Virus genome (UHGV): UHGV-0204578
Direction: 5' to 3' (one strand)
DNA length: 31,092 bases
Origin: a virus
Shown here: one piece after another, positions 2,994 through 31,092 of the stretch
Numbering within the stretch: the stretch's first letter is position 1
How the letters are laid out: each line of letters opens with the position of its first letter
Notes under the pieces: generated by a model
Seen by the model: only the letters and a program-made list of their open reading frames with translations
The model's database searches: none
What the model was told of the DNA's origin: nothing
Program-made: the position numbers and the translations under genes

Positions 2994-3568
2994 ACCGGGC
3001 CTCCGGTTGTATCGCCGCCTTTCAGGACGCCAGTATGCTGATGCGCATCAACCACGATCCCGTTAGAACTCATCGCTCCGCCGCCCTGGGTAACGCCACC
3101 ATTGATCACCACTTCGCTGTTAATGCGCGTGCGGTCAGCCTCCAGTACAAACTCACTGGTTTTCATGGTGATGTTGTCAGCAGCCTCAATGACCATTGAT
3201 TTGATGCCCCTGACATACCAGCGCCCGGTGGCGGGTTCGTATTCAAACCAGCCACCGTCAGGATGTTCTGTCACGCAGGCGTCCGCCGACGTCGACGGTG
3301 GTGCGAACTGATTCGAATAGACAGCGGGCAGCGCAAAGGCGGTTTCCAGATTGCCGCCCAGACTCAGCAGCACCACCTGCTCACCTTCCGATGGTCGCCA
3401 CCATGTACGGGCATTCCCGGCACGCAGCGTCAGCCAGCTGATCCAGTTGGTTTCAAGCTCGCCCGTTTTCACCCGGCAAAGCCAGTTTTCCCTGTCCACT
3501 TCGGTGACTACCCCTGTGCGGATCAGGTTGGTGATAAGGCGCATGATTTCGGTTAATTGTGCGTTCAT
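2990..3568 (-). CDS. V: Baseplate spike / tail protein gpV
   Basis: 192-aa ORF; N-terminus and overall pattern resemble P2 gpV; first gene downstream of the late-promoter dyad at 3615..3632. Confidence 0.85.
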   Translation of the reverse strand: MNAQLTEIMRLITNLIRTGVVTEVDRENWLCRVKTGELETNWISWLTLRAGNARTWWRPSEGEQVVLLSLGGNLETAFALPAVYSNQFAPPSTSADACVTEHPDGGWFEYEPATGRWYVRGIKSMVIEAADNITMKTSEFVLEADRTRINSEVVINGGVTQGGGAMSSNGIVVDAHQHTGVLKGGDTTGGPV

Positions 3569-3614
3569 AGGGAAAGGTTGCCATCAGGGGAAGAAAGGCG
3601 GCAGTGCTGCAACT

Positions 3615-3632
3615 TGTATCAGTGCTGATACA
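3615..3632 (-). promoter_or_regulatory. Late promoter activator site (TGT-N12-ACA dyad) upstream of the V-W-J-I-H operon
   Basis: tgtatcagtgctgataca lies inside a perfect 20-bp palindrome ttgtatcagtgctgatacaa between S stop and V start. TGT-N12-ACA is the conserved Ogr/B-dependent late-promoter element of P2/186. Confidence 0.55.
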
Positions 3633-3636
3633 AAGA

Positions 3637-4083
3637 TCACCCCGCCAGCCATTGCAGAATCATGTCGCGGGTCATTGCCTCAACATCATCATTTACACCC
3701 AGCAGGCGGCGCTCTGCGTAACGGACCTCCGGTCCTTTGCGACTGACGCGATCACGCAGGCCGTAATGGTGAACACAGGCAATACGCTGCACCTTGCCTT
3801 CAAACTGTACGCTGGCAGAGTCGGCGCTGGCGGCAGTTTTCAGGTATTTTGTGGTGCGCAACTTTGCAAACATCTGACGTTTGATGCGGCCTTTTTTGCT
3901 GCGTGCTGTTACCCTGCGCGGTTCATAACTGCTGCCATCTGGATTGCGCTGCATCCTGATATTCTGCTGCTGTGTCCGGCGCAGTTCCTGCGCCAGCTGG
4001 CGCATCATGCGGCTTCTCGTGGCTGGTTCCAGATTCGCCAGCAAGGCACTCAGCCAGTCGTCCACCTTCTGCAGTTCAGCCAC
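3637..4083 (-). CDS. S: Tail completion protein gpS
   Basis: 148-aa ORF (P2 S is about 150 aa) in the correct position between R and V. Confidence 0.8.
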   Translation of the reverse strand: MAELQKVDDWLSALLANLEPATRSRMMRQLAQELRRTQQQNIRMQRNPDGSSYEPRRVTARSKKGRIKRQMFAKLRTTKYLKTAASADSASVQFEGKVQRIACVHHYGLRDRVSRKGPEVRYAERRLLGVNDDVEAMTRDMILQWLAG

Positions 4084-5447: not shown

Positions 5448-5919
5448 GGCGGTTATCCAGCCCCTGATTAAAAATACCTTTCACATAAACCCAGCGCGGC
5501 AACTGTCGGCACGCATCCGCCCAGCGCCGCTGGTTGAGTAATTTCACCAGCGTGGAACTGCAGGCATTGCCCGTTCCCACGTTGAAGGCAAACGACACCG
5601 CAGCGTCATACACCTTCTGCGGCGGCTGTTGCTTCACACACCTTTCCAGCGCCCGCTCCACACGCAGCACGTTAGAGATCAGCCCTTCCGCTGCCTGTCG
5701 TTCCGTAATGGTTTTGCCGGGAATGACGCCAGACGTATTACCAATGCCGTCGGTCCAGACACCCGCGCTGCACTGATACGGCTGCAGACGACAGCCTTCG
5801 TAATCGGCAATCAGTTTCAGCCCCTCCACGGAGGTGTGAAGCTGCTGAAAACCCGGCAGCGTGGCAGCAATAGCCAGCACGGCCCCGACAAGGCAGCGTT
5901 TAACGATTGATGGATTCAT
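5407..5919 (-). CDS. K: Endolysin gpK (lysozyme-like with N-terminal signal-anchor)
   Basis: 170-aa ORF with hydrophobic N-terminus and lysozyme-like core, resembling P2 K; strong GGGAGG RBS. Confidence 0.85.
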   Translation of the reverse strand: MNPSIVKRCLVGAVLAIAATLPGFQQLHTSVEGLKLIADYEGCRLQPYQCSAGVWTDGIGNTSGVIPGKTITERQAAEGLISNVLRVERALERCVKQQPPQKVYDAAVSFAFNVGTGNACSSTLVKLLNQRRWADACRQLPRWVYVKGIFNQGLDNRRAREMAWCLQGAN

Positions 5920-19761: not shown

Positions 19762-20787
19762 ATGACCATCAGAAAACAGCCGAACGGAAAGTGGTTATGT
19801 GAATGCTACCCAAACGGGAGAGATGGCAAACGCGTACGCAAACAATTTGCGACGAAAGGCGAAGCCATTGCGTTTGAGAATTTCACCATGGATGAGGTAA
19901 ACAAGAAACCTTGGCTGGGAGAAAAGGAAGATCGGCGACAACTGTCAGAAGTGATTGAGCAATGGTATTCCCTGTACGGTCAGACACTCGCTGACCCTAA
20001 GCGATTAATGGCTAAGTTAAAAATCATTTGTAATGGACTTGGCGATCCCATCGCTTCTGAATTGACAGCAGGTGATTTCACAAAGTACCGGGAAGCCAGA
20101 TTAAAAGGTGAGGTCAAAAACGAAGATGGCGTGCTCATGTCACCGGTTAAGCCCAGAACGGTGAACCTTGAACAGCGTAACCTATCCTCAGTTTTTGGCA
20201 CACTGAAAAAGCTGGGACATTGGTCTGCACCCAACCCCCTCGCCGGTCTGCCAACTTTCAAAATTGCAGAAGGTGAACTGGCGTTCCTTGCTGCTGATGA
20301 AATCAAACGCCTGCTTGACGCATGTGCTGAATCTCAAAGTCCCAGTCTGCTAATGATTGCCAAGATTTGCCTGGCTACCGGGGCAAGATGGAGCGAAGCC
20401 GAAAACCTGCAAGGTAACCAGATATCAAAGTATCGAATTACCTATACCAAAACAAAAGGAAAGAAAAACCGAACTGTTCCTATTTCTCAGGAACTGTATG
20501 AAGAATTACCCAAAAACAGAGGAAAGTTATTCACACCATGCCGAAAGGCTTTTGAGCGTGCGGTAAAACGAGCTGGAATTGAACTACCTGAAGGTCAATG
20601 TACCCACGTTCTGCGCCACACTTTCGCCAGCCACTTTATGATGAACGGCGGAAACATTTTGGTATTGAGGGATATTTTAGGACACGCTGATATTAAAATG
20701 ACCATGATTTATGCCCATTTTGCACCTGATCATCTGGAAGATGCCGTTACCAAAAATCCACTTCATAACCTCAACTGGCATCGCTAA
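19762..20787 (+). CDS. int: Tyrosine integrase (P2/186 Int family)
   Basis: 341-aa ORF with C-terminal catalytic region HVLRHTFASHFMMNGGNILVLRDILGHADIKMTMIYAH (R..H..R..Y signature); reads toward the att core. Confidence 0.9.
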   Translation: MTIRKQPNGKWLCECYPNGRDGKRVRKQFATKGEAIAFENFTMDEVNKKPWLGEKEDRRQLSEVIEQWYSLYGQTLADPKRLMAKLKIICNGLGDPIASELTAGDFTKYREARLKGEVKNEDGVLMSPVKPRTVNLEQRNLSSVFGTLKKLGHWSAPNPLAGLPTFKIAEGELAFLAADEIKRLLDACAESQSPSLLMIAKICLATGARWSEAENLQGNQISKYRITYTKTKGKKNRTVPISQELYEELPKNRGKLFTPCRKAFERAVKRAGIELPEGQCTHVLRHTFASHFMMNGGNILVLRDILGHADIKMTMIYAHFAPDHLEDAVTKNPLHNLNWHR

Positions 20788-20904
20788 TAAATGGCGGCAT
20801 TTTGGCGGCAGAACACTAAAAACAAGTAAAACAAGCAAATACAGACTAACACTAACATCATGATTTAAAATAAAAAAATATGATTTTGTTAGTATAAAAA
20901 TGGT

Positions 20905-20949
20905 ATGTAGGAATTTCGGACGCGGGTTCAACTCCCGCCAGCTCCACCA
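20905..20949 (+). other. ssrA: att core: 45-nt copy of the 3' end of the tmRNA gene ssrA (fragment only)
   Basis: ATGTAGGAATTTCGGACGCGGGTTCAACTCCCGCCAGCTCCACCA matches the E. coli ssrA 3' terminus from memory. Sequence upstream is integrase coding/AT-rich arm DNA, so the full gene is not here. Confidence 0.75.
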
Positions 20950-20982
20950 AATGATGATCCGGATACGTCCGGTGAAGTACAG

Positions 20983-21017
20983 AAAGCCCGCATGGCACAA
21001 GCCCTGCGGGCTTTTTT
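20983..21017 (+). terminator. Intrinsic terminator downstream of the ssrA 3' end
   Basis: GC hairpin gcccgca...tgcgggc followed by TTTTTT. Confidence 0.55.
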
Positions 21018-21060
21018 GTGTCTGACGTTGTCCGAGAACATCCGGCTAAATCCGGTGATT

Positions 21061-21114
21061 ATTGGTATACGTTTAGGTATACGGTAGGATGTATACCTAA
21101 AAACGTATACCAAT
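21061..21114. promoter_or_regulatory. Inverted repeat of a 22-bp motif (ATTGGTATACGTTTAGGTATAC) upstream of the satellite integrase; candidate Int arm sites or int operator
   Basis: Arms at 21061..21082 and 21091..21114 are near-perfect reverse complements; a third copy (one mismatch) lies at 30515..30536. Confidence 0.5.
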
Positions 21115-21133
21115 TCATGAAGGAGCGGCCACA

Positions 21134-22327
21134 GTGGCACGGACAACACGCCCCCTTACCAACACCGAAGTTCTGCGCGCTAAGGCGTTAGAGAAGGATC
21201 TAACGCTGCACGATGGCGACGGGCTTTTCCTGATAGTGAAAACTAGTGGCAAAAAGCTCTGGCGCTTTCGCTATCAACGTCCGGTAACAAAGCAGCGGAC
21301 AATGATGGGGCTCGGTGCCTTCCCCGCCCTATCGCTTGCTGATGCCCGAGGATTAAGAGCGGATTACCTTGCCTTATTAGCCAACGGACTCGACCCGCAA
21401 ATTCAAACTGAAGTTGCAGAGGAACAGCAGCAAATAGCACTGGACAGTATTTTTTCAACGGTCGCCGCTAACTGGTTCCAGCTCAAAAGCAAAAGCGTTA
21501 CCCCTGATTACGCAAAAGACATTTGGCGCTCACTGGAGAAAGATGTATTCCCTGCCATCGGTGAGATCCCCGTTCAGCAAATCAAAGCACGGACACTGGT
21601 TGAAGCTCTTGAGCCAATCAAAGCTCGTGGGGCGCTTGAGACTGTACGTCGACTGGTGCAGCGCATTAACGAGATAATGATTTATGCCGTAAACACTGGC
21701 CTGATTGATGCTAATCCAGCATCAGGTGTTGGGATGGCCTTTGAGAAGCCCAAAAAACAAAACATGCCGACGCTTCGGCCAGAAGAGTTACCAAAACTCA
21801 TGCGTTCTTTGGTGATGTCAAATCTCTCTGTTTCGACTCGCTGTTTAATTGAATGGCAACTCCTGACGCTTGTGCGCCCTTCTGAGGCCTCCGGTGCTCG
21901 TTGGGCAGAAATCGATCTCGATGCAAAGCTTTGGACTATTCCAGCCGAACGGATGAAGGCGAAACGTGAGCACATAGTTCCTCTCTCAACTCAGGCATTA
22001 GAGATTCTCGAAGTGATGAAACCAATCAGCGCTCACCGTGAACATGTTTTTCCCAGTAGGAATGATCCAAAACAATCCATGAATAGCCAAACAGCTAATG
22101 CAGCTTTGAAGCGTATAGGATATGGAGGAAAATTAGTTGCACACGGTTTACGATCTATTGCAAGTACTACATTGAATGAAGCGGGCTTTAATTCAGATGT
22201 GATAGAAGCGGCATTAGCTCATACAGATAAAAATGAGGTAAGAAGAGCATATAACCGCTCTATCTATTTAAAGCAAAGAATAGGCATGATGGAATGGTGG
22301 GGTGAAAAAGTTTATAATAAAAACTGA
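21134..22327 (+). CDS. int: P4-family integrase (IntA-like tyrosine recombinase)
   Basis: 397-aa ORF, GTG start with AAGGAG 8 nt upstream; N-terminus MARTTRPLTNTEV...DGDGLFLIVKTSGKKLWRFRY typical of P4/CP4-57 integrases; sits about 185 bp after the ssrA 3' end as intA does in E. coli K-12. Confidence 0.9.
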   Translation: MARTTRPLTNTEVLRAKALEKDLTLHDGDGLFLIVKTSGKKLWRFRYQRPVTKQRTMMGLGAFPALSLADARGLRADYLALLANGLDPQIQTEVAEEQQQIALDSIFSTVAANWFQLKSKSVTPDYAKDIWRSLEKDVFPAIGEIPVQQIKARTLVEALEPIKARGALETVRRLVQRINEIMIYAVNTGLIDANPASGVGMAFEKPKKQNMPTLRPEELPKLMRSLVMSNLSVSTRCLIEWQLLTLVRPSEASGARWAEIDLDAKLWTIPAERMKAKREHIVPLSTQALEILEVMKPISAHREHVFPSRNDPKQSMNSQTANAALKRIGYGGKLVAHGLRSIASTTLNEAGFNSDVIEAALAHTDKNEVRRAYNRSIYLKQRIGMMEWWGEKVYNKN

Positions 22328-22366
22328 AAAAAAAATAAAAGCTCATTCTTATGAGCTTTTATTTTC
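22328..22366. terminator. Bidirectional intrinsic terminator between int and the cargo operon
   Basis: Hairpin aaaagctcat-tctt-atgagctttt flanked by an A-run on one side and a T-run on the other. Confidence 0.65.
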
Positions 22367-22964
22367 CTGCATTACCTTTCGAATTATCAGCATCCTGTTT
22401 ATTTTGAAAAGTCATAAAGGTATTATACCAACTAGAAACACGGAATATAGCAAGAACAGCTGCTAATGCAGAGAATACTGAGTAAATAAATATAAAGTAA
22501 GCAAAAAAACTAAATATTAATAACGCATACTTATAGAAAACACCTAAATAATAATACATAAAAGCATTATTTATGAGAATACTACTATAGGCCTTGGTAA
22601 CCAAGGCCGTAATAATAGTTAGTAATTGCAACAATATAAAATGGACAAAAGTTGCATTGACTGACATATAAGGAGAATATTCTACTTCCCCACTTTCACT
22701 TTTTTCATCACCAGTTATTATTTTTTTAAAGGCCTCATCACCAATAGCTATCCACATAGCAAAACCACCTAATGAAAAGCCCAGAAGGTTCGGCATCAAT
22801 GACAGGATATCATTCCACCACCCCTGATGAGACCAAGATGGATAAAGAATCACTGTCATTAAAAAAGCACACCAAAAATAGCGACTTTTAAACACAGCCC
22901 CAGCGCCACCATAGATTTTCCAGTATCTAGCCAATGCACTGGTTGATTCTTTTTCTTCACTCAT
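22359..22964 (-). CDS. Uncharacterised integral membrane protein (201 aa, about 4 TM helices); downstream gene of cargo cassette
   Basis: Hydrophobic segments YFWCAFLMTVILYPSW, ILSLMPNLLGFSLGGFAMWIAIG, VHFILLQLLTIITALV, YALLIFSFFAYFIFIYSVFSALAAVLAIF; start overlaps the upstream gene stop (TAATG); AT-rich. Confidence 0.7.
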   Translation of the reverse strand: MSEEKESTSALARYWKIYGGAGAVFKSRYFWCAFLMTVILYPSWSHQGWWNDILSLMPNLLGFSLGGFAMWIAIGDEAFKKIITGDEKSESGEVEYSPYMSVNATFVHFILLQLLTIITALVTKAYSSILINNAFMYYYLGVFYKYALLIFSFFAYFIFIYSVFSALAAVLAIFRVSSWYNTFMTFQNKQDADNSKGNAGK

Positions 22965-23893
22965 TACTTTCTCAGAAGCCTCTTAAATTCATCTGCTAAT
23001 GATTTTGCCCTTAATAACAATAGCTCAGAAACCGATGTTACGTCAGAATCATATGGTTCGACCCTTTGAAGTGGTACGTCACTTGAGGCATGAACCTCTA
23101 CTAATCCCGCCTCATTAATCCTGCGTATACTAACTTCACCATTTCTCGAAGCAATAAGAGCATCCTGTTTTAACTCACCATCAGGTTTAATTTCCTGACC
23201 TCGCTCAGATTTATATGTTTTATCCTCTTCAATAACCCCAATACGCTTGAAGCGCTTTTGCATAACATTTTCTGCAGAAGCGAGATCATCCGGATTAGGA
23301 CGTCGAGTGACCATATTTATACACGTAATACCTTTTAAAGAAAGCATACGTTCTACACTATCTGGCTCAGTCAATATTGTAACATTAACCTTTCCAAATT
23401 TCTCTATAATTCTCTCGTGAGAAAATATCCCATTCAGAAAGCTTTCTATTTGTCTTGGTGTAAGATGCCGGCTCTTGTCCTGCATTTCGTAAACTAAAAG
23501 ATGACTTGCGGGTAGAAAAACAAAAGAGAATCTAGCTACATTTGGTTTTAAATTATCAGGTATATTTATTCTTTCCTTTTCCTCATCTGAAGCTATATCT
23601 TTCTTTACGATATCGAACCAGTCGCCATTAACGTCAATATCTGTATACTTTAGAATTTCCCCCTCAAAAGGTTCACTAATTACCTGACCTTTCTTATAAG
23701 GATAAAAATATGATAAAGTTGCGAATGAGTCTCCTCTTAAATTAACATTGCTCGCATTTTTTCTTGCCATCCTGAATAACTCGACATACTTTTCTGGCGA
23801 GTGGGGGTGCATGGATATATTCACAGCCCCGTAAGTTAATTTTTTTGCCCTTGCCATTTTTATCTTTGTTCCCTTATTTCGTGAAAGAATCAT
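22964..23893 (-). CDS. Uncharacterised soluble protein (309 aa; 297 aa if start is ATG at 23857); upstream gene of cargo cassette
   Basis: Intact AT-rich ORF with no TM segments and no catalytic motif I recognise (no Walker A, no GS..DxD nucleotidyltransferase motif, no HxH); translationally coupled to the membrane protein gene. Confidence 0.7.
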   Translation of the reverse strand: MILSRNKGTKIKMARAKKLTYGAVNISMHPHSPEKYVELFRMARKNASNVNLRGDSFATLSYFYPYKKGQVISEPFEGEILKYTDIDVNGDWFDIVKKDIASDEEKERINIPDNLKPNVARFSFVFLPASHLLVYEMQDKSRHLTPRQIESFLNGIFSHERIIEKFGKVNVTILTEPDSVERMLSLKGITCINMVTRRPNPDDLASAENVMQKRFKRIGVIEEDKTYKSERGQEIKPDGELKQDALIASRNGEVSIRRINEAGLVEVHASSDVPLQRVEPYDSDVTSVSELLLLRAKSLADEFKRLLRK

Positions 23894-24264: not shown

Positions 24265-24831
24265 TTACGGCGCGGCCAGTTCGGCGCGTCGACGGGTGTA
24301 AATCATGCTCTGTGCAGGGGTGAATTTTTCACGATTATCATCCCGCGAAGGCGCGTCAGGCCTGTATCCGATGGCCGTTAAAATATCGCTATCCTGTGCC
24401 GAATAATTAATTTCATTTCCTGCGGCCAGCCAGACGGAAAGAGCTTCTCGCAGGTATGCTACTGAACGGTCAAGCGCACGGTTTTTTATCATCGTGGGCT
24501 GGTTCTTAATTCCCATCAGCTCGGGTGCCAGTGCGGCGGCCAGCTCCGCGCCGTTCTGCTGCATAAAATCGTACAGCCGGTTACGGATGCTGATGCGCTG
24601 CACCTCCTCATGCGAGGAAATGTAGCGACCGGCGGCCTGATTAATCTCCCATTTTTTTACGTCAATAATATCTCGCAGCGTCTGTAATCTGCGGGAACCT
24701 GATGCGTTGTCATCCAGCAATAATTCCTGATATTCCTGTTCTGCGGCGGTCAGTTCGGCTTTACAGTTCAGCCACGCCGTTTTGTTCGTCTGACAGGCAT
24801 CGAACGCCTGCTGTAAGGTCAGGGTGGTCAC
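24265..24831 (-). CDS. psu: Psu (polarity suppression / capsid decoration protein)
   Basis: 188-aa ORF (GTG start) with strong similarity to P4 Psu (..LQQAFD.CQ.NK.AWL..K.EL.AAEQEY..NQAAGRYI.SHE.VQ.ISIR.RL.DFMQQ..). Confidence 0.85.
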   Translation of the reverse strand: MTTLTLQQAFDACQTNKTAWLNCKAELTAAEQEYQELLLDDNASGSRRLQTLRDIIDVKKWEINQAAGRYISSHEEVQRISIRNRLYDFMQQNGAELAAALAPELMGIKNQPTMIKNRALDRSVAYLREALSVWLAAGNEINYSAQDSDILTAIGYRPDAPSRDDNREKFTPAQSMIYTRRRAELAAP

Positions 24832-24847: not shown

Positions 24848-25093
24848 TTAATGGTGGAACGGTGAGCTGTAGCAGCTTTTTACCCGGCGGGGTGTAACGG
24901 GTACTGTCGGCACCGGTGCGGGTTTCTCATCGACGACCGGGGAACGGATCACCTCAAAGATGGACTCATGCGTTTTGAATGTCGCCGAGCAGTGCACATT
25001 CTGGCACTGGAGGTAACTCTCTTTGACGCTGTCAGACATATAGCGGCTGGTGCGAACGTGGGCCGCTGTGCGACAGAAAGGGCAGCGCATCAT
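24848..25093 (-). CDS. delta: Delta/Ogr-family zinc-finger late-gene activator
   Basis: MMRCPFCRTAAHVRTSRYMSD...YLQCQNVHCSATF mirrors P2 Ogr (CPLCQHAAHARTSRY...HQCQNVNCSATF). Confidence 0.85.
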   Translation of the reverse strand: MMRCPFCRTAAHVRTSRYMSDSVKESYLQCQNVHCSATFKTHESIFEVIRSPVVDEKPAPVPTVPVTPRRVKSCYSSPFHH

Positions 25094-25827
25094 GACAGTA
25101 ACCCTCGTGCTTTCAGATCGGCTTCACGTTCCTGCATTTTTTCCTGCCAGACTTTTCGCTGACCGGGCGTGGCCGCAACGTCATGCTCCATATGTGGCAG
25201 CGTGGAGGCCGCCAGCCCTGTTTTAAAAAGCACTGGTTCATCAGTCAGACGGATATTGCAGTCCTTCACCGCCTGCTCAAGCCATGATTTCACCTTATGC
25301 ATAACGGCATGCTCTGGTTCGACATAGCCCTGATGCCCGATGGTGTTGGCAAGCGGATTTTCTTTAACCAATATGCTGAGTTTCATTGCTCTAACGAGTG
25401 CGCCGCAGGTTTCACGTAGGGCGGCATCGAGTTCATGCTCTGCATACTGGCTGAGTACGCCGTGATGCGCCTGACGGTATGTTCTGGCCGTGCTGTCACA
25501 GGCTCCCCGAAGGCTGTCCAGCTCGAAAGACAGCACCTCAGCCATGTTGTCACATTCCAGTGCCAGCTCCCGCCGTGCCACGCGCGCAATATGGCGTTGT
25601 TTCAGCTCGTCGGTAATGACAGCACCACCGGCACGAAAGGCGGTGCGCCATGCACCGGAATCATTGCCGTTTTCCTGCTCCAGTTCAGTTTTTTGCGTTT
25701 TCACCTGGCTGATGGCCGTCGTGGTTTCGTCCATGCGTCGGGCATTGGTCAGATGTGCTTCTCTGGCCGTCTCAAGACTTTCTATTGCGGGTTTAAGGTA
25801 GTCGGGAATAACAGCGGTCTGAGTCAT
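25090..25827 (-). CDS. sid: Sid (capsid size determination external scaffold)
   Basis: 245 aa from ATG at 25827 (GAGGAGA RBS); position and length as P4 sid, upstream of delta and psu; helical, Gln/Glu-rich. The track ORF start at 25893 is an upstream extension. Confidence 0.75.
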   Translation of the reverse strand: MTQTAVIPDYLKPAIESLETAREAHLTNARRMDETTTAISQVKTQKTELEQENGNDSGAWRTAFRAGGAVITDELKQRHIARVARRELALECDNMAEVLSFELDSLRGACDSTARTYRQAHHGVLSQYAEHELDAALRETCGALVRAMKLSILVKENPLANTIGHQGYVEPEHAVMHKVKSWLEQAVKDCNIRLTDEPVLFKTGLAASTLPHMEHDVAATPGQRKVWQEKMQEREADLKARGLLS

Positions 25828-25899
25828 GTCGGGTCTCCTCTTCGTTTCAATCTGAGGAGATTCTGCCGCGCCGGACACAACAACACGATTCATTGCCGT

Positions 25900-25917
25900 T
25901 GTGGCAAAAATGGCACA
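25900..25917 (-). promoter_or_regulatory. Psid late promoter activator site (TGT-N12-ACA)
   Basis: tgtggcaaaaatggcaca centred about 81 bp upstream of the sid ATG; same dyad type as the helper late promoters. Confidence 0.6.
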
Positions 25918-26004
25918 AACAGACCTTAAAACCCGGCTGGCCAGAGAAAGGTCTCATGAAAACATTACTCACCGTTTGTTTTTTTACTTATAACTATTCA
26001 CTAC

Positions 26005-26114
26005 TGTTCACTGAAAAGAAAAAGATAAGTAATACAGTAAGTTAAAGGGTGAACAGTTGAAGGTCTGACTGTTCACCGTCTGTTCACCACTGTTCACCTT
26101 TCAGTTTGTTCAGC
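26005..26114. repeat. Iteron cluster (TGTTCACC type), candidate alpha-binding ori/crr element
   Basis: Exact TGTTCACC at 26070, 26081 and 26091 (10 to 11 bp spacing), inverted GGTGAACA at 26048, degenerate copies at 26005 and 26107. TGTTCACC is the P4 type I iteron. Confidence 0.65.
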
Positions 26115-26367
26115 CAGTCAGCCACTTAGACTTTTTGGCGATTAAAAAACAGAAGTATATAAACAAAAGTAATCAGCAATGGGCCACCGGTTTGCCAACG
26201 TTTGCCAAAAAACGGCCAACGTTTGCCACTGTATAAAAATCGCTCTGTTGTGTGGTGGAGTACTACAAAATGACTTGTTGCCCTGAGGGAAAATATTCAC
26301 AAAATAGAGAGCTACCCGAAGCCGGACGGACACGACCGGCACTGTATGGACTTTGTGAGGTAGCCCG

Positions 26368-26634
26368 ATGCACACCGTTTTTTCTTCCCCGTCTTCTGCC
26401 CCTGCCGCGCCGCTGATGCCGGTTTCTGATACCGTTCACGAACGCTTTATCCGTCTGCCCGAAGTGATGCATCTGTGCGGCCTGTCCCGCTCGACCATTT
26501 ACGACCTCATCAGCCGGGAAGCCTTCCCGAAACAAATCTCCCTCGGCGGAAAAAATGTGGCGTGGGCGCAGTCTGAAATCACTGCATGGATGGCGGATCG
26601 CATTGCCGAACGTAACCGGGGCTATGACGCATGA
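26368..26634 (+). CDS. alpA: AlpA/Vis-family small DNA-binding regulator
   Basis: 88-aa ORF with the AlpA-type HTH segment [49 protein letters not shown]. Confidence 0.75.
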
Positions 26635-26761
26635 TGATGATCGCTCAGCAAACAGCCCCTTTTTCTGGCTTGCTTCTTTTCGCCATTTCCAGGTATAGTT
26701 TTCCCGCTGTCGCAAAATCGACAGCCGGGCGTGGAAACCCGAGCAACTCGAAGGCGACACC

Positions 26762-26785
26762 AGACGCGCCATGCGTCTTTTTTTG
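26762..26785 (+). terminator. Intrinsic terminator inside an untranslated leader
   Basis: agacgc-gccat-gcgtct hairpin followed by TTTTTTT, in the roughly 400-bp gap between alpA and the next RBS-bearing start. Confidence 0.55.
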
Positions 26786-27032
26786 TGTCGCAACTAACGC
26801 CACAGAGCGCCAGATAATGGCGTGGTGTGCGGATCGTCGTGCAGACGTCACTTTGTGTCTCCTGTCCGCAATCGCATATCATGCTGTCATGTCAATGGTA
26901 GCTCAGGCGGGGCAGCCCTCGGGCTGGCCGGTATTCTTCGAGGCCGGTATTTCCACCCCCGTCTGGGCTATCGCCACTGAGCGTGGAAACTCCGGCGATA
27001 GCAATAATTTGCTACTCGAAGGAGGTTGCCTT

Positions 27033-27227
27033 ATGGCTACGACCCTCACCCCGTCACAGCCTCAGTTTGTCTTTGTGTTTGCCGCCGTCCGTCGTGCAGA
27101 CCGTAAGCCCCGTATCTGTATGCTCCGCACCGTTGCCGGTGACGAGCACGCCGCACGTCTTTCCCTCGTTCGCGATTACGTCCTCTCGTTCGCTGGCCGT
27201 CTGCCGGTTGCGGAGGTGCGCGCATGA
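27033..27227 (+). CDS. Hypothetical small protein (64 aa)
   Basis: ATG at 27033 preceded by AAGGAGG (7-nt spacing). The upstream in-frame 134 codons of track ORF 26631..27227 contain the terminator, look non-protein-like and are rejected. Confidence 0.5.
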
Positions 27228-27451
27228 GACACACCACCATTACCGCCCGTGACCTCGAATGCCTTGAGCACATGCGCAACGTCGGCCAGCTCGTCAATGA
27301 GCTGATGCAGGTGCAGGACTGTACGGCCGTTCGTCGTGACCCTGCTCAGCAGTCACAGCTCACCTCCGTGATTTACCTTATGACCGCCCAGCTCGACGGC
27401 GTGGTTGAGCGCTGCAATCAGCACTGGCTGACCGGGGAGGGCAACGTATGA
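27224..27451 (+). CDS. Hypothetical small protein (75 aa)
   Basis: ATGA-coupled to the previous ORF, GGAGGTG RBS. Confidence 0.55.
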
Positions 27452-27768
27452 AACAGCCATTACCGCCCGTATTACGCGCCGCGCTGTATCGTCGCGCCGT
27501 GGCCTGTGCATGGCTGACGGTGTGCGAATGCCAGCACCGCTACCCGCACCTCACCCTCGACGCGCTGGAAAGCGCCATTGCCGCCGAGCTGGAGGGCTTC
27601 TATCTGCGCCAGCACGGCGAGGAAAAGGGCCGTCAGATTGCCTGTGCATTACTGGAAGATTTAATGGAAGCCGGGCCACTGAAAGCCGCGCCGTCACTGT
27701 CCTTTCTCGGGCTCGCGGTGATGGATGAACTTTGCGCCCGTCACATCACATCGCCTGTACTGCACTGA
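27448..27768 (+). CDS. Hypothetical protein (106 aa)
   Basis: ATGA-coupled to the previous ORF, directly upstream of alpha. Confidence 0.55.
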
Positions 27769-27782
27769 GGGAGAAAATAACA

Positions 27783-30116
27783 ATGAAAATGAATGTAACG
27801 GAAACCGTAAAACAGGCCTGCGGCCACTGGCCGCGCATTCTCCCGGCGCTGGGTGTGAAGGTCATTAAAAACCGCCATCAGGCCTGCCCGGTATGCGGCG
27901 GCTCTGACCGCTTTCGCTTTGACGATAAAGAGGGGCGCGGCACGTGGTTCTGTAACCAGTGCGGCGCGGGTGACGGCCTTAAACTGATTGAGAGGGTATT
28001 CGATGTATCTGCCTCAGAGGCCGCCCAAAAGGTGAATGCTGTCACCGGCAACCTGCCGCTGGTTGCCCCGGAGGTGATTGCGGCCGCAGAGGCTGAAACC
28101 GATGCCGACCGCAAAGCGGCGGCCGAGCTGGCCGTAAAACTCATGGAGAAGACCCGCACGGCTGCCGGCAATGCCTACCTGACCCGCAAGGGCTTCCCCG
28201 ATAGTGAATGTGTGATGCTGACGGCCACACATAAAACCGGCGGTGTGACGTACAGTGCCGGGGATTTGGTTGTTCCGCTGCATGACCATTCCGGCGCGCT
28301 GGTTAATCTTCAGCTTATCAATGCTGAGGGTCTCAAACGCACCCTGAAAGGCGGCGCGGTGAAAGGGGCATGCCATATCATCGAAGGGCAGAAACAGGCA
28401 GGAAAACGCCTGTGGATAGCAGAGGGCTATGCAACAGCACTCACCGTGCATCACCTGACTGGCGAAACCGTCATGGTGGCGCTGTCGTCCGTGAACCTTC
28501 TTTCTCTGGCGAGCCTTACCCGACAAAAGCACCCGGCCTGTCAGATTGTCCTCGCCGCCGACCGCGACCTCAGCGGGAACGGCCAGACCAAAGCCGCAGC
28601 GGCTGCACTGGCTTGTGAGGGCGTTGTTGCCCTGCCGCCGGTATTTGGTGACTGGAATGATGCGTTTATGCAGCAGGGTGAGGACGCCACACGCAAAGCT
28701 GTCTATGGTGCCGTCCAGCCAGCCACACAAAGCCCGTTCGACACCATGAGCGAAGCCGAATTTACCGCCATGAGCGCCAGCGACAAGGCTTTGCGGGTAC
28801 ATGAGCATTACGGCGAAGCGCTGGCGGTGGATGCGAACGGCCAGCTCCTGTCCCGCTATGAAAACGGCATCTGGAAAAATATCCCTGCCGCCACTTTTTC
28901 ACGGAATGTGGCTGATTTATTCCAGCGCTTACGCGCCCCGTTCTCATCCGGGAAAATCGCCTCGGTGGTGGAGACCCTGAAACTGATTATTCCGCAGCAG
29001 GATACACCTGCGCGCCGTCTGATTGGTTTTCGTAACGGGGTGCTGGATACCCAAAGCGGGATATTCAGCCCACACAGCAAATCGCACTGGCTGCGCACCC
29101 TGTGCGATGTGGATTTTACCCCGCCGGTGGACGGGGAAACGCTGGAGACGCACGCGCCGAACTTCTGGCGCTGGCTCGACCGTGCGGCCGGTAAAAATCC
29201 ACAAAAACGCGACGTGATTCTGGCCGCGCTGTTTATGGTGCTGGCGAACCGTTACGACTGGCAGCTCTTTCTCGAAGTCACCGGTCCCGGTGGAAGCGGT
29301 AAAAGTATTCTGGCCGAAATTGCGACCCTGCTCGCCGGGGAAGATAACGCCACGTCAGCCGATATCGACACACTGGAAGACCCGCGCAAGCGTGCCTCCC
29401 TGATTGGCTTCTCGCTTATCCGTCTGCCAGACCAGGAAAAATGGAGCGGTGACGGCGCAGGACTTAAGGCCATCACCGGCGGCGATGCGGTCTCAGTTGA
29501 CCCGAAATACCAGAACCCATACTCAACACATATTCCGGCGGTGATTCTGGCCGTGAACAACAACCCCATGCGCTTCACCGACCGCAGCGGCGGTGTGTCG
29601 CGCCGCCGGGTGATTATCCACTTCCCGGAGCAGATTGCGCCGGAGGAACGCGACCCGCAGCTCAGGGATAAAATTGCGCGCGAGCTGGCCGTGATTGTGC
29701 GCCAGCTTATGCAGAAATTCAGCGACCCGATGACTGCACGCGCACTGCTCCAGTCGCAGCAGAACTCCGACGAGGCACTCAGCATCAAGCGCGATGCTGA
29801 CCCGACGTTTGATTTTTGCGGCTATCTGGAAATGCTCCCGCAGACCAACGGGATGTTTATGGGGAATGCCAGCATCATCCCGCGTAATTATCGTAAATAT
29901 CTCTATCATGCGTATCTGGCCTATATGGAGGCCAACGGATACAGAAACGTGCTCAGCCTGAAAATGTTCGGGCTGGGGCTGCCCATGATGCTGAAAGAGT
30001 ACGGCCTGAATTATGAGAAGCGGCACACCAAGCAGGGGATACAGACTAACCTGTCGCTGAAAGAGGAAAGCTACGGCGACTGGCTGCCTAAGTGCGACGA
30101 ACCCACAGCGATATAA
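27783..30116 (+). CDS. alpha: Alpha primase-helicase (P4 alpha family)
   Basis: Starts MKMNVTETVKQ... (GAGGGAG RBS), giving 777 aa, the P4 alpha length as I remember it. N-terminal zinc-binding primase motif CPVCGGSDRFRFDDKEGRGTWFCNQCGAGDG; Walker A GPGGSGKS in the helicase domain. Confidence 0.9.
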   Translation: MKMNVTETVKQACGHWPRILPALGVKVIKNRHQACPVCGGSDRFRFDDKEGRGTWFCNQCGAGDGLKLIERVFDVSASEAAQKVNAVTGNLPLVAPEVIAAAEAETDADRKAAAELAVKLMEKTRTAAGNAYLTRKGFPDSECVMLTATHKTGGVTYSAGDLVVPLHDHSGALVNLQLINAEGLKRTLKGGAVKGACHIIEGQKQAGKRLWIAEGYATALTVHHLTGETVMVALSSVNLLSLASLTRQKHPACQIVLAADRDLSGNGQTKAAAAALACEGVVALPPVFGDWNDAFMQQGEDATRKAVYGAVQPATQSPFDTMSEAEFTAMSASDKALRVHEHYGEALAVDANGQLLSRYENGIWKNIPAATFSRNVADLFQRLRAPFSSGKIASVVETLKLIIPQQDTPARRLIGFRNGVLDTQSGIFSPHSKSHWLRTLCDVDFTPPVDGETLETHAPNFWRWLDRAAGKNPQKRDVILAALFMVLANRYDWQLFLEVTGPGGSGKSILAEIATLLAGEDNATSADIDTLEDPRKRASLIGFSLIRLPDQEKWSGDGAGLKAITGGDAVSVDPKYQNPYSTHIPAVILAVNNNPMRFTDRSGGVSRRRVIIHFPEQIAPEERDPQLRDKIARELAVIVRQLMQKFSDPMTARALLQSQQNSDEALSIKRDADPTFDFCGYLEMLPQTNGMFMGNASIIPRNYRKYLYHAYLAYMEANGYRNVLSLKMFGLGLPMMLKEYGLNYEKRHTKQGIQTNLSLKEESYGDWLPKCDEPTAI

Positions 30117-30168: not shown

Positions 30169-30455
30169 GGTGAACAATCCACTGCTCACCCTTCACCGTA
30201 TATTCACCCTGTATCACCATGAAATTATTGATAAAAAACCAGAGGTGAACAGTGTGAACAGTAAAACCTGAAAAAACTTTTTATCACCCCTCACATCGCC
30301 TGAGCGGACGGTTCCAGAACGAGCACAAATCACAAAGGTGAAGAGTCGACTGTTCACTCTTCACCAACCATTCACCACTTATCATTATGATATTAAAAAG
30401 AAAAAAAGAGAGGTGAACAGTGTGAACAGTTAAATGCAAAAAAACTTTTTTTTAA
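30169..30455. repeat. Two tandem ~168-bp repeats, each carrying TGTTCACC-type iterons (crr-like cis replication region)
   Basis: Units starting near 30169 and 30337 are clearly homologous; GAGGTGAACAGTGTGAACAGT occurs in both (30242 and 30410), with several TTCACC/GGTGAA half-iterons. Confidence 0.65.
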
Positions 30456-30769: not shown

Positions 30770-31092
30770 TCAGAACGACCAGTTCACACCAGCTACCGCG
30801 TTCCACGGGGATTCCACACCGGCACTATGGCTATACCCCACCCCAAGATGCCCGCTTAACGTACTGCTGAATGAGGCTTTAATACCTGCCTGGTATATTC
30901 CACGTCTGCCCGACAAATAATTGACGAAATTACCGTCACTATTCACTTTCACCCGGTTATCATCGACAAATTCTTTGCGCACAGCCGCCTTCAGCCACGG
31001 CTCAACTTCCATGCCGTTCCCCAGACGCATGTTGTAACTCAGCGTTGCGCCCAGTTCACGATATATACTGCGGGTATCGACTGATTTCGATT
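30770..31092 (-). CDS. 3' end of a probable outer-membrane beta-barrel / autotransporter gene (5' part beyond window end)
   Basis: Frame stays open upstream of the track M to the window edge (my translation ...SVDTRSIYRELGATLSYNMRLGNG...). C-terminus ...VGYSHSAGVESPWNAVAGVNWSF ends in an aromatic-x-F beta-barrel signature. Confidence 0.45.
   Translation of the reverse strand, partial: SKSVDTRSIYRELGATLSYNMRLGNGMEVEPWLKAAVRKEFVDDNRVKVNSDGNFVNYLSGRRGIYQAGIKASFSSTLSGHLGVGYSHSAGVESPWNAVAGVNWSF

Follow-up and report, generated by a model that had tools for sequence, protein, structure and literature searches.

The three small open reading frames directly upstream of alpha in the window (the whole stretch of DNA that was analysed, 31,092 nucleotides of the virus genome UHGV-0204578) are very probably kil, orf75 and cnr, three neighbouring genes in the early ("left") operon of a P4-like satellite. 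Most satellites of this kind share the gene order, which is their standard architecture, and the locus is an ordinary one. A sequence-only reading had put all three frames forward as candidates for helper takeover; ORF1 and ORF3 leave that list as homologues of P4 Kil and P4 Cnr, respectively, and only ORF75, the product of the middle frame, stays on it.

The satellite and its neighbouring prophage

The P4-like satellite covers 21.1-30.1 kb of the window, from int at 21134 through alpha at 30116. In the gene list, the integrase (21134-22327) and psu (24265-24831) enclose two hotspot genes on the minus strand, and psu is followed by delta/ogr (24848-25093) and an ORF in the sid position (25090-25893), which is assigned by position only and has no Pfam match. 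The core set of P4-like satellites as defined by Moura de Sousa and Rocha is represented by Pfam matches for the integrase, Psu, Ogr_Delta, AlpA, Phage_ASH and the alpha domains. A 4.3-kb stretch shows ~80% nucleotide identity to phage P4 across 89% of its length, with the same gene order; in P4 itself this order reads ORF88 (vis), the "cI 137-aa ORF", epsilon (95 aa), ORF151, ORF106 and alpha.

Upstream of the satellite, the window contains a 186-type P2-like prophage that is ~95% identical to Klebsiella phage Kp4845-2. The suggestion of a 186-type CI/Apl switch nearby was borne out by a CI protein with PF07022 and PF16452, by CII/CP76 and Fil, and by an 82-aa ORF that occupies the Apl position. 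The prophage also encodes a GPA replication protein and a Dam methylase. Since the 3′ end of ssrA (20911-20950) sits between the prophage and the satellite, the two elements are tandem integrants at the tmRNA gene.

Kil and Cnr in a coupled chain under probable antisense control

The three ORFs had been described as translationally coupled genes of 64, 75 and 106 aa upstream of alpha, and their coordinates and sizes proved exact. All lie on the plus strand: ORF1 (kil) at 27033-27227, with its ATG at 27033 and its TGA at 27227, ORF2 (orf75) at 27224-27451 and ORF3 (cnr) at 27448-27768. ORF1 is preceded 7 nt upstream by the Shine-Dalgarno sequence GAAGGAGG. The tetranucleotide ATGA serves as shared stop and start of ORF1 and ORF2 (27224-27227) and of ORF2 and ORF3 (27448-27451), and the Shine-Dalgarno sequences of ORF2 and ORF3 (GGAGG) are embedded in the final codons of the gene before each. 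A spacer of 14 nt containing GAGGGAG separates ORF3 from alpha (27783-30116, plus strand), which encodes a primase-helicase of 777 aa with Zn_Ribbon_Prim, Toprim_3, D5_N, DUF5906 and Pox_D5 domains. Alpha matches phrog_2249 at 5e-231 and shares ~80% nucleotide identity with P4 alpha. The order kil, orf75, cnr is kept in ~50 loci from different Enterobacterales species, the ATGA overlap between orf75 and cnr is present in 50 of 51 loci, and dN/dS is low throughout (kil 0.15, ORF75 0.28, cnr 0.095, with dS of 0.5-0.9). The conserved order, the maintained overlap and the low ratios together establish the three ORFs as real genes rather than chance frames.

ORF1 is at the same time the in-frame 3′ portion of a longer ORF of 198 aa, eta (26631-27227, plus strand; PF10554 Phage_ASH, 1.8e-24), which holds the CI RNA gene as well as kil; P4 eta (199 aa) also matches PF10554. 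The start of eta is in turn ATGA-coupled to the stop of vis/alpA (26368-26634, plus strand), an 88-aa gene with a PF05930 Phage_AlpA match at 3e-20 whose product is 72% identical to P4 ORF88. Given that eta contains ORF1 and is coupled to vis, the coupled chain is vis-eta(kil)-orf75-cnr, with vis as its first gene.

ORF1 is 85% identical over 62 aa (E=5e-38) to the 65-aa Kil of P4, the C-terminal product of the eta frame. In addition, it matches the NCBIfam model NF033153 phage_ICD_like with 78.3 bits against a cut-off of 25 (E 3e-22), and a homologue carries the PGAP label "host cell division inhibitor Icd-like protein". Judged by these similarities, ORF1 is Kil, a predicted Icd-like inhibitor of host cell division. 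The protein is very basic (pI 11.2). Its gene is nested in eta, is the first to be translated downstream of the CI RNA and has a Shine-Dalgarno sequence overlapped by a CI-RNA target. The likeness to P4 kil thus extends beyond identity to a length within one residue, to the location at the 3′ end of an eta frame of ~198 aa overlapping the CI RNA gene, and to the CI-RNA target over its own Shine-Dalgarno sequence. According to PMC10111431, P4 Kil is a truncated Eta acting in cell killing (Forti et al. 1999, as cited there) and P4 kil is nested in eta. The same source states that P4 makes full-length Eta from the upstream late promoter alone, and that Eta translation blocks immunity-dependent termination.

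ORF3 is 92% identical to P4 ORF106 (E=6e-73) and matches PF17345 DUF5375 over its full length (213 bits, cut-off 30). On this homology, ORF3 is Cnr, the counterpart of the P4 copy-number regulator, and would likewise act on alpha. P4 Cnr is reported to bind the alpha initiator and thereby to limit P4 DNA replication. In both elements the protein has 106 aa and its gene lies directly upstream of alpha, but it is coupled to a full-length ORF75 here and to a 21-codon remnant in P4. The position of cnr directly upstream of a P4-type alpha recurs in more than 50 loci. In the survey of P4-like elements in PMC8628076, the cnr family, which controls plasmid copy number, lies between the "epsilon" marker and alpha in 90% of the elements.

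The CI, or C4-type, antisense immunity RNA is encoded on the plus strand at 26891-26978 (RF01695, full length, 76.1 bits against a gathering score of 45). Upstream of it lies a leader (26693-26783, plus strand) with a seqA-like CI-RNA target, in which the Rfam families c4-a1b1 (26693-26745) and isrK (26706-26783) were both matched above their gathering scores. In the terminator scan, this leader ends in a terminator-like hairpin at 26762-26778 followed by a T-run. The CI loop UUCUUCGAG at 26934-26942 is complementary to two sites, namely CUCGAAGGA at 27015-27023 and CUCGAAGG at 26747-26754. The former, with 9 nt of complementarity to the loop, belongs to a seqC-like target overlapping the kil Shine-Dalgarno (CUCGAAGGAGG; 27015-27025, plus strand). 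Across ~50 related loci, which display at least 12 loop variants, the loop and both targets co-vary. Such three-way covariation is strong evidence that the ribosome-binding site of kil is a target of the antisense RNA. The loop/target pair is UUCUUCGAG/CUCGAAGGA here, unlike the UCCUGUGAA/UUCACAGGA of P4, and this difference would make for an immunity of another specificity. A simple scan of 25850-27850 yielded no sigma-70-like promoter; equivalents of PLE and PLL were thus not located.

The operon anatomy was read from this sequence, and how the operon is regulated is taken over from P4. As long as the satellite is a prophage, the CI RNA would pair through its one loop with both the leader site and the site at the kil ribosome-binding site. 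This pairing would stop kil translation and cause premature termination, leaving kil, orf75, cnr and alpha silent. Once the upstream late promoter has been switched on by the helper, vis would be translated, and after it eta, with the ribosomes crossing the CI region; transcription would then continue downstream. The ATGA overlaps would then hand ribosomes from eta/kil to orf75 and on to cnr, with alpha next.

The immI region of P1 and P7 (c4 RNA, icd, ant) offers a second model. In P1, ant sits behind icd. Here as there, a C4-family RNA lies upstream of an Icd-like gene, the RNA loop pairs with the ribosome-binding site of that gene, and more genes are translationally coupled downstream. By analogy with P4 and P1, kil and the genes coupled behind it would be silent in the immune state. 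The downstream genes are orf75, cnr and the primase gene in this satellite and not the Ant antirepressor, and the operon also serves replication.

The ORF75 family and its relation to epsilon

ORF75 matches phrog_10110 over its full length (1-75 of 75) at 4e-45, and has no Pfam, NCBIfam or PADLOC match. When its homologues are clustered at 90% identity, 311 clusters result; every one comes from Enterobacterales and bears the name "hypothetical". Among 1.84 billion representatives, a profile search picked out only 28 members of the family and no annotated relative. Near-identical proteins (at least 88% identity) occur in E. coli, Klebsiella, Salmonella, Citrobacter, Enterobacter and Edwardsiella. 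No ORF75 was found in INPHARED phages, and four apparent "plasmid" matches turned out to be chromosomes or pieces of them under the wrong label, with the familiar satellite surroundings. Moura de Sousa and Rocha (2021, PMC8628076) described a 75-aa protein without assigned function in 61% of P4-like elements and noted its absence from P4. ORF75 agrees with that family in size, in its place beside cnr between the "epsilon" marker and alpha, and in being absent from P4; no difference was apparent, and the locus is a typical member. A natural deletion fusion of ORF75 and Cnr also exists (P0008).

The AF2 model of ORF75 is an antiparallel two-helix hairpin with helices at residues 8-31 and 40-70 (pLDDT 83.5). 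A sequence profile search found no relative in the PDB, and Foldseek comparison of the hairpin with the PDB and BFVD returned generic helical hairpins only, none with an E value below 0.29; the "primase helicase-binding domain" 5z51 was rejected as a chance fold match (E=4.8). The protein is acidic (pI 5.4). About 20 residues, including H16, C64 and the motif LxHLRNxG, are invariant down to ~40% identity, and in the model H16 and C64 would face each other across the hairpin. ORF75 is thus predicted to be a small acidic helical-hairpin protein restricted to P4-like satellites.

Selection on ORF75 is purifying, with dN/dS of 0.23-0.28 overall and 0.15 in helix 2 (dS ~0.7-1.0). At the same time, its non-synonymous rate is 2-4 times that of Cnr, Kil and the alpha N-terminus (dN 0.25 vs 0.06-0.12), and it evolves faster than Vis too. 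The last codons (GEG) encode the cnr Shine-Dalgarno sequence and are constrained at the DNA level, as would be expected if ORF75 were mainly a translated spacer that brings ribosomes to cnr and carries its Shine-Dalgarno sequence, with little function as a protein. P4 also lends itself to this reading: what it retains is an in-frame remnant of 21 codons, with the start, the GGAG inside it and the ATGA shared with cnr. However, purifying selection runs along the whole of ORF75 and is strongest in helix 2, the invariant residues persist among distant homologues, and the predicted fold is confident. As selection acts on the ORF75 protein, a role as a pure spacer is very unlikely.

Mapping of 57 Cnr-bearing loci from species-representative genomes revealed three architectures. 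Type A, that of the window, is kil-orf75-cnr and accounts for 41 complete loci. In type B, kil-epsilon-ORF151-cnr, are P4, three P4-identical MAG contigs and L055. Type C has the order kil, epsilon, ORF151, an intergenic hairpin, orf75 in an 86-aa form and cnr, and comprises six loci plus L054, which has ORF151 and no detectable epsilon. Wherever the epsilon-ORF151 cassette is present, it separates kil from orf75 and never orf75 from cnr; in all three architectures, orf75 or its remnant directly precedes cnr and shares an ATGA overlap with it. In the alignment, both ends of orf75 survive in P4, joined in a mini-ORF of 21 codons (L001, 3610-3675) that is ATGA-coupled to cnr, which identifies P4 as a deletion derivative. 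The succession alpA-eta-orf75-cnr-alpha is retained in the most divergent members of the family.

These arrangements bear on the idea that ORF75 modulates or neutralises Kil, as an acidic partner translated together with a division inhibitor that is toxic and very basic. The opposite isoelectric points (11.2 for Kil, 5.4 for ORF75) and the ATGA coupling of kil and orf75 in the majority architecture fit such a partnership, but P4 has kil without ORF75. Moreover, when epsilon-ORF151 is present, orf75 parts from kil and stays with cnr, for which reason this role is highly improbable.

P4 epsilon is an antirepressor. The sequence-only reading had placed it in this position of the P4 genome, and it is indeed located between kil and ORF106; also correct was the remark that none of the three small proteins obviously resembles it. 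None of them matches PF25738 ("Derepression"), whereas P4 epsilon and the epsilons of L037 and L044 match it at 1e-43 to 1e-51. Comparison of ORF75 with epsilon and ORF151 gave E=18 or no alignment by BLASTP and hhalign probabilities of 0.4% and 0.1%, and both epsilon and ORF151 are absent from the window by tblastn, Pfam and hhalign. Like P4 epsilon, ORF75 is encoded between kil and cnr in the same operon; unlike it, ORF75 has relatives that coexist with epsilon elsewhere, and it has no sequence or profile similarity to it. The notion that ORF75 stands in the position of epsilon does not hold: in relatives that have both, ORF75 lies downstream of epsilon-ORF151, intact and under purifying selection. 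Being intact in type C with a dN/dS of 0.20, ORF75 is not redundant with epsilon, and it is no positional replacement for it.

In complete E. coli genomes, cnr was found at 1810 places, true epsilon at 1188 (nearly all with 95% identity or more to P4), and orf75 of the window type at 86. The near-exclusivity of epsilon and ORF75 in E. coli was rejected as a sign of functional replacement. In 976 of 993 E. coli genomes, epsilon shows 95% identity or more, and the epsilon-bearing elements are one successful, near-clonal lineage of P4 type, so the exclusivity does not stem from independent events. It is further undercut by divergent E. coli elements (e.g., the O157 type), which carry a divergent ORF75 of 73-74 aa that is detected by HMM (E ~1e-30) and missed by blastn.

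Annotation practice also deserves comment. PF10554 (Phage_ASH) matches eta, historically the "put. ash gene", and not the 95-aa epsilon, which belongs to PF25738. In the methods of PMC8628076, PF10554 is the "epsilon" core marker of P4-like satellites. Since this marker detects eta, an element scored as "epsilon-positive" may, like the present satellite, have no epsilon, and automated annotation with this "epsilon/Ash" marker has hidden both the missing epsilon and the retained orf75.

ORF75 could still be an antirepressor independent of epsilon, or another helper-manipulation factor, adapted to the repressors of 186-type helpers or of others outside the P2 type. The satellite lacks a true epsilon and its adjacent helper has a 186-type CI; to our knowledge, P4 epsilon does not target CI of this type. 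In type A, orf75 is coupled directly behind kil, matching P1, where ant follows icd, and P4, where epsilon follows kil; the protein is small, acidic and the fastest-evolving of the operon, and the P4 lineage, which has no ORF75, carries epsilon. Against this, ORF75 and epsilon-ORF151 occur together in 6-7 of the 57 loci and in a widespread 86-aa Enterobacter form under purifying selection, and the exclusivity seen in E. coli goes back to one clonal P4-type lineage. Furthermore, the near-identity of ORF75 across six genera speaks against such a role, and neither sequence-profile nor fold searches revealed similarity to any known antirepressor. On balance, an antirepressor of this kind seems unlikely.

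Possible roles of ORF75 and their meaning

Our preferred reading, which is tentative and, taken by itself, less likely than not, is that ORF75 serves as a protein-binding accessory of an orf75-cnr-alpha replication-control unit. It is favoured because the coupling to cnr is constant and is preserved even in the P4 remnant. However, P4 replicates and controls its copy number without ORF75, and ORF75 evolves faster at non-synonymous sites than its operon neighbours, a pattern more in keeping with a partner that is external and variable than with one that is internal and conserved. Nor did mirror-tree comparisons of ORF75 with Kil, Cnr, alpha segments and Vis help this accessory role; they were dominated by linkage, were inconsistent between locus sets and gave no specific signal, and the fold searches offered no pointer to function either. 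The main alternative to an accessory of replication control, which is rather doubtful, is that ORF75 acts as a factor for the manipulation of helper or host.

For two of the three genes, the biology is already explained by P4 genetics (kil and cnr), and the third, orf75, belongs to a documented family. What is new here about the 75-aa family is its coexistence with true epsilon, the deletion remnant in P4, the measures of selection and the predicted fold. P4, the model of P4-like satellites, is without orf75, a gene maintained by purifying selection in the majority of its relatives; true epsilon, in turn, is missing from most relatives that do not belong to the E. coli P4 lineage. In the present case, the resident helper of an epsilon-less satellite is a 186-type prophage, in tandem with it at ssrA. 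ORF75 might be an ancestral epsilon-independent effector by which the majority of P4-like satellites work on an outside partner, or else a hitherto overlooked third component of the Cnr-alpha replication switch, a proposal that we regard as improbable as it stands. If the former were true, the partner would be a helper repressor of non-P2 type or another protein of helper or host. If either were true, P4 would be an atypical deletion derivative that has misled the field about the standard toolkit of these satellites.

Gene architecture upstream of alpha

Two arrangements of the satellite early region dominate in different hosts. Among complete E. coli genomes, the P4-type, epsilon-bearing architecture prevails (1188 of 1810 cnr places), and the epsilon encoded there is almost always at least 95% identical to that of P4. 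Elsewhere in the Enterobacterales, as sampled by species representatives, the order kil-orf75-cnr dominates instead (41 of 57 loci). P4 itself (L001) retains a trace of orf75: its 21-codon mini-ORF MPYQLMQPARNAVICHREKSK (3610-3675), closed by a stop codon, is what an in-frame deletion has left of the gene in its 86-aa form, and the ATGA overlap with the start of cnr has been kept. In epsilon-bearing elements, the stretch between ORF151 and orf75, or what remains of orf75, contains the conserved hairpin GTGCGTATC...GATACGCAC and, after it, AGGAG. The hairpin is found in P4 (about 3560-3610) and in two related epsilon-bearing loci, L037 (about 5670-5745) and L044. It could act in processing or attenuation at the border of the epsilon-ORF151 cassette.

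Natural fusions of ORF75 are rare, with two cases (P0008 and P0033) in the homologue set. In the first, an internal deletion has fused ORF75(1-73) with Cnr(51-106), and the second is a Kil-ORF75 fusion created by a frameshift; each probably stems from a defective element or an assembly error.

Integration site, flanks and possible replication elements

The 3' end of ssrA (tmRNA; 20911-20950) has an integrase gene on either side, one from the 186-type prophage and one from the P4-like satellite (region 19762-22327). The helper and the satellite have thus integrated in tandem at ssrA. E. coli Z1323PEC0011 and K. pneumoniae strain 176 carry close relatives of the satellite without an adjoining helper. 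At the right flank, the minus strand encodes the C-terminal end (...AGVNWSF) of an autotransporter-like ORF (30770-31030); in a related E. coli locus, ypjA/ehaD is the next gene past the satellite.

Between int and psu, in the satellite's defence hotspot, lie two overlapping minus-strand genes (22359-22964 and 22964-23893), one for a DUF4747 protein of 309 aa and the other for a 201-aa protein with no Pfam match. As neither protein has a PADLOC match, the two could form an uncharacterised defence pair. Two features resemble replication elements of P4: the two direct repeats of about 114 nt downstream of alpha (30169-30282 and 30337-30450) are similar to crr, and the TGTTCAC(C) cluster in the sid-vis intergenic region (26040-26110) is similar to the ori type 1 repeats.

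CI/C4 RNA and its leader

Across the window and loci L003-L057 (about 50 loci), the loop of the CI/C4 immunity RNA (26934-26942) covaries with both the upstream target (26747-26754) and the kil Shine-Dalgarno region (27015-27023). The loop takes at least 12 different sequences in this sample, and that of the window is shared with no other locus in it. Such sequence diversity suggests many immunity specificities. The leader also contains a full-length Rfam match to isrK (26706-26783), an Hfq-binding sRNA of Salmonella, which overlaps the c4-a1b1 target motif. The terminator scan placed a terminator-like hairpin and T-run (26762-26778) at the end of this match. A short sRNA-like transcript may arise from the leader.

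The Phage_ASH marker and epsilon

Published work on P4-like satellites takes Phage_ASH (PF10554) as its core marker for "epsilon" (PMC8628076). In our Pfam scan, what this profile detects is eta, formerly annotated as the "put. ash gene" (26631-27227 in the window; 2209-2808 in P4). The real 95-aa epsilon of P4 (2801-3088) has no PF10554 match and belongs to PF25738 ("Derepression"). Some satellites scored as epsilon-positive may thus lack epsilon.
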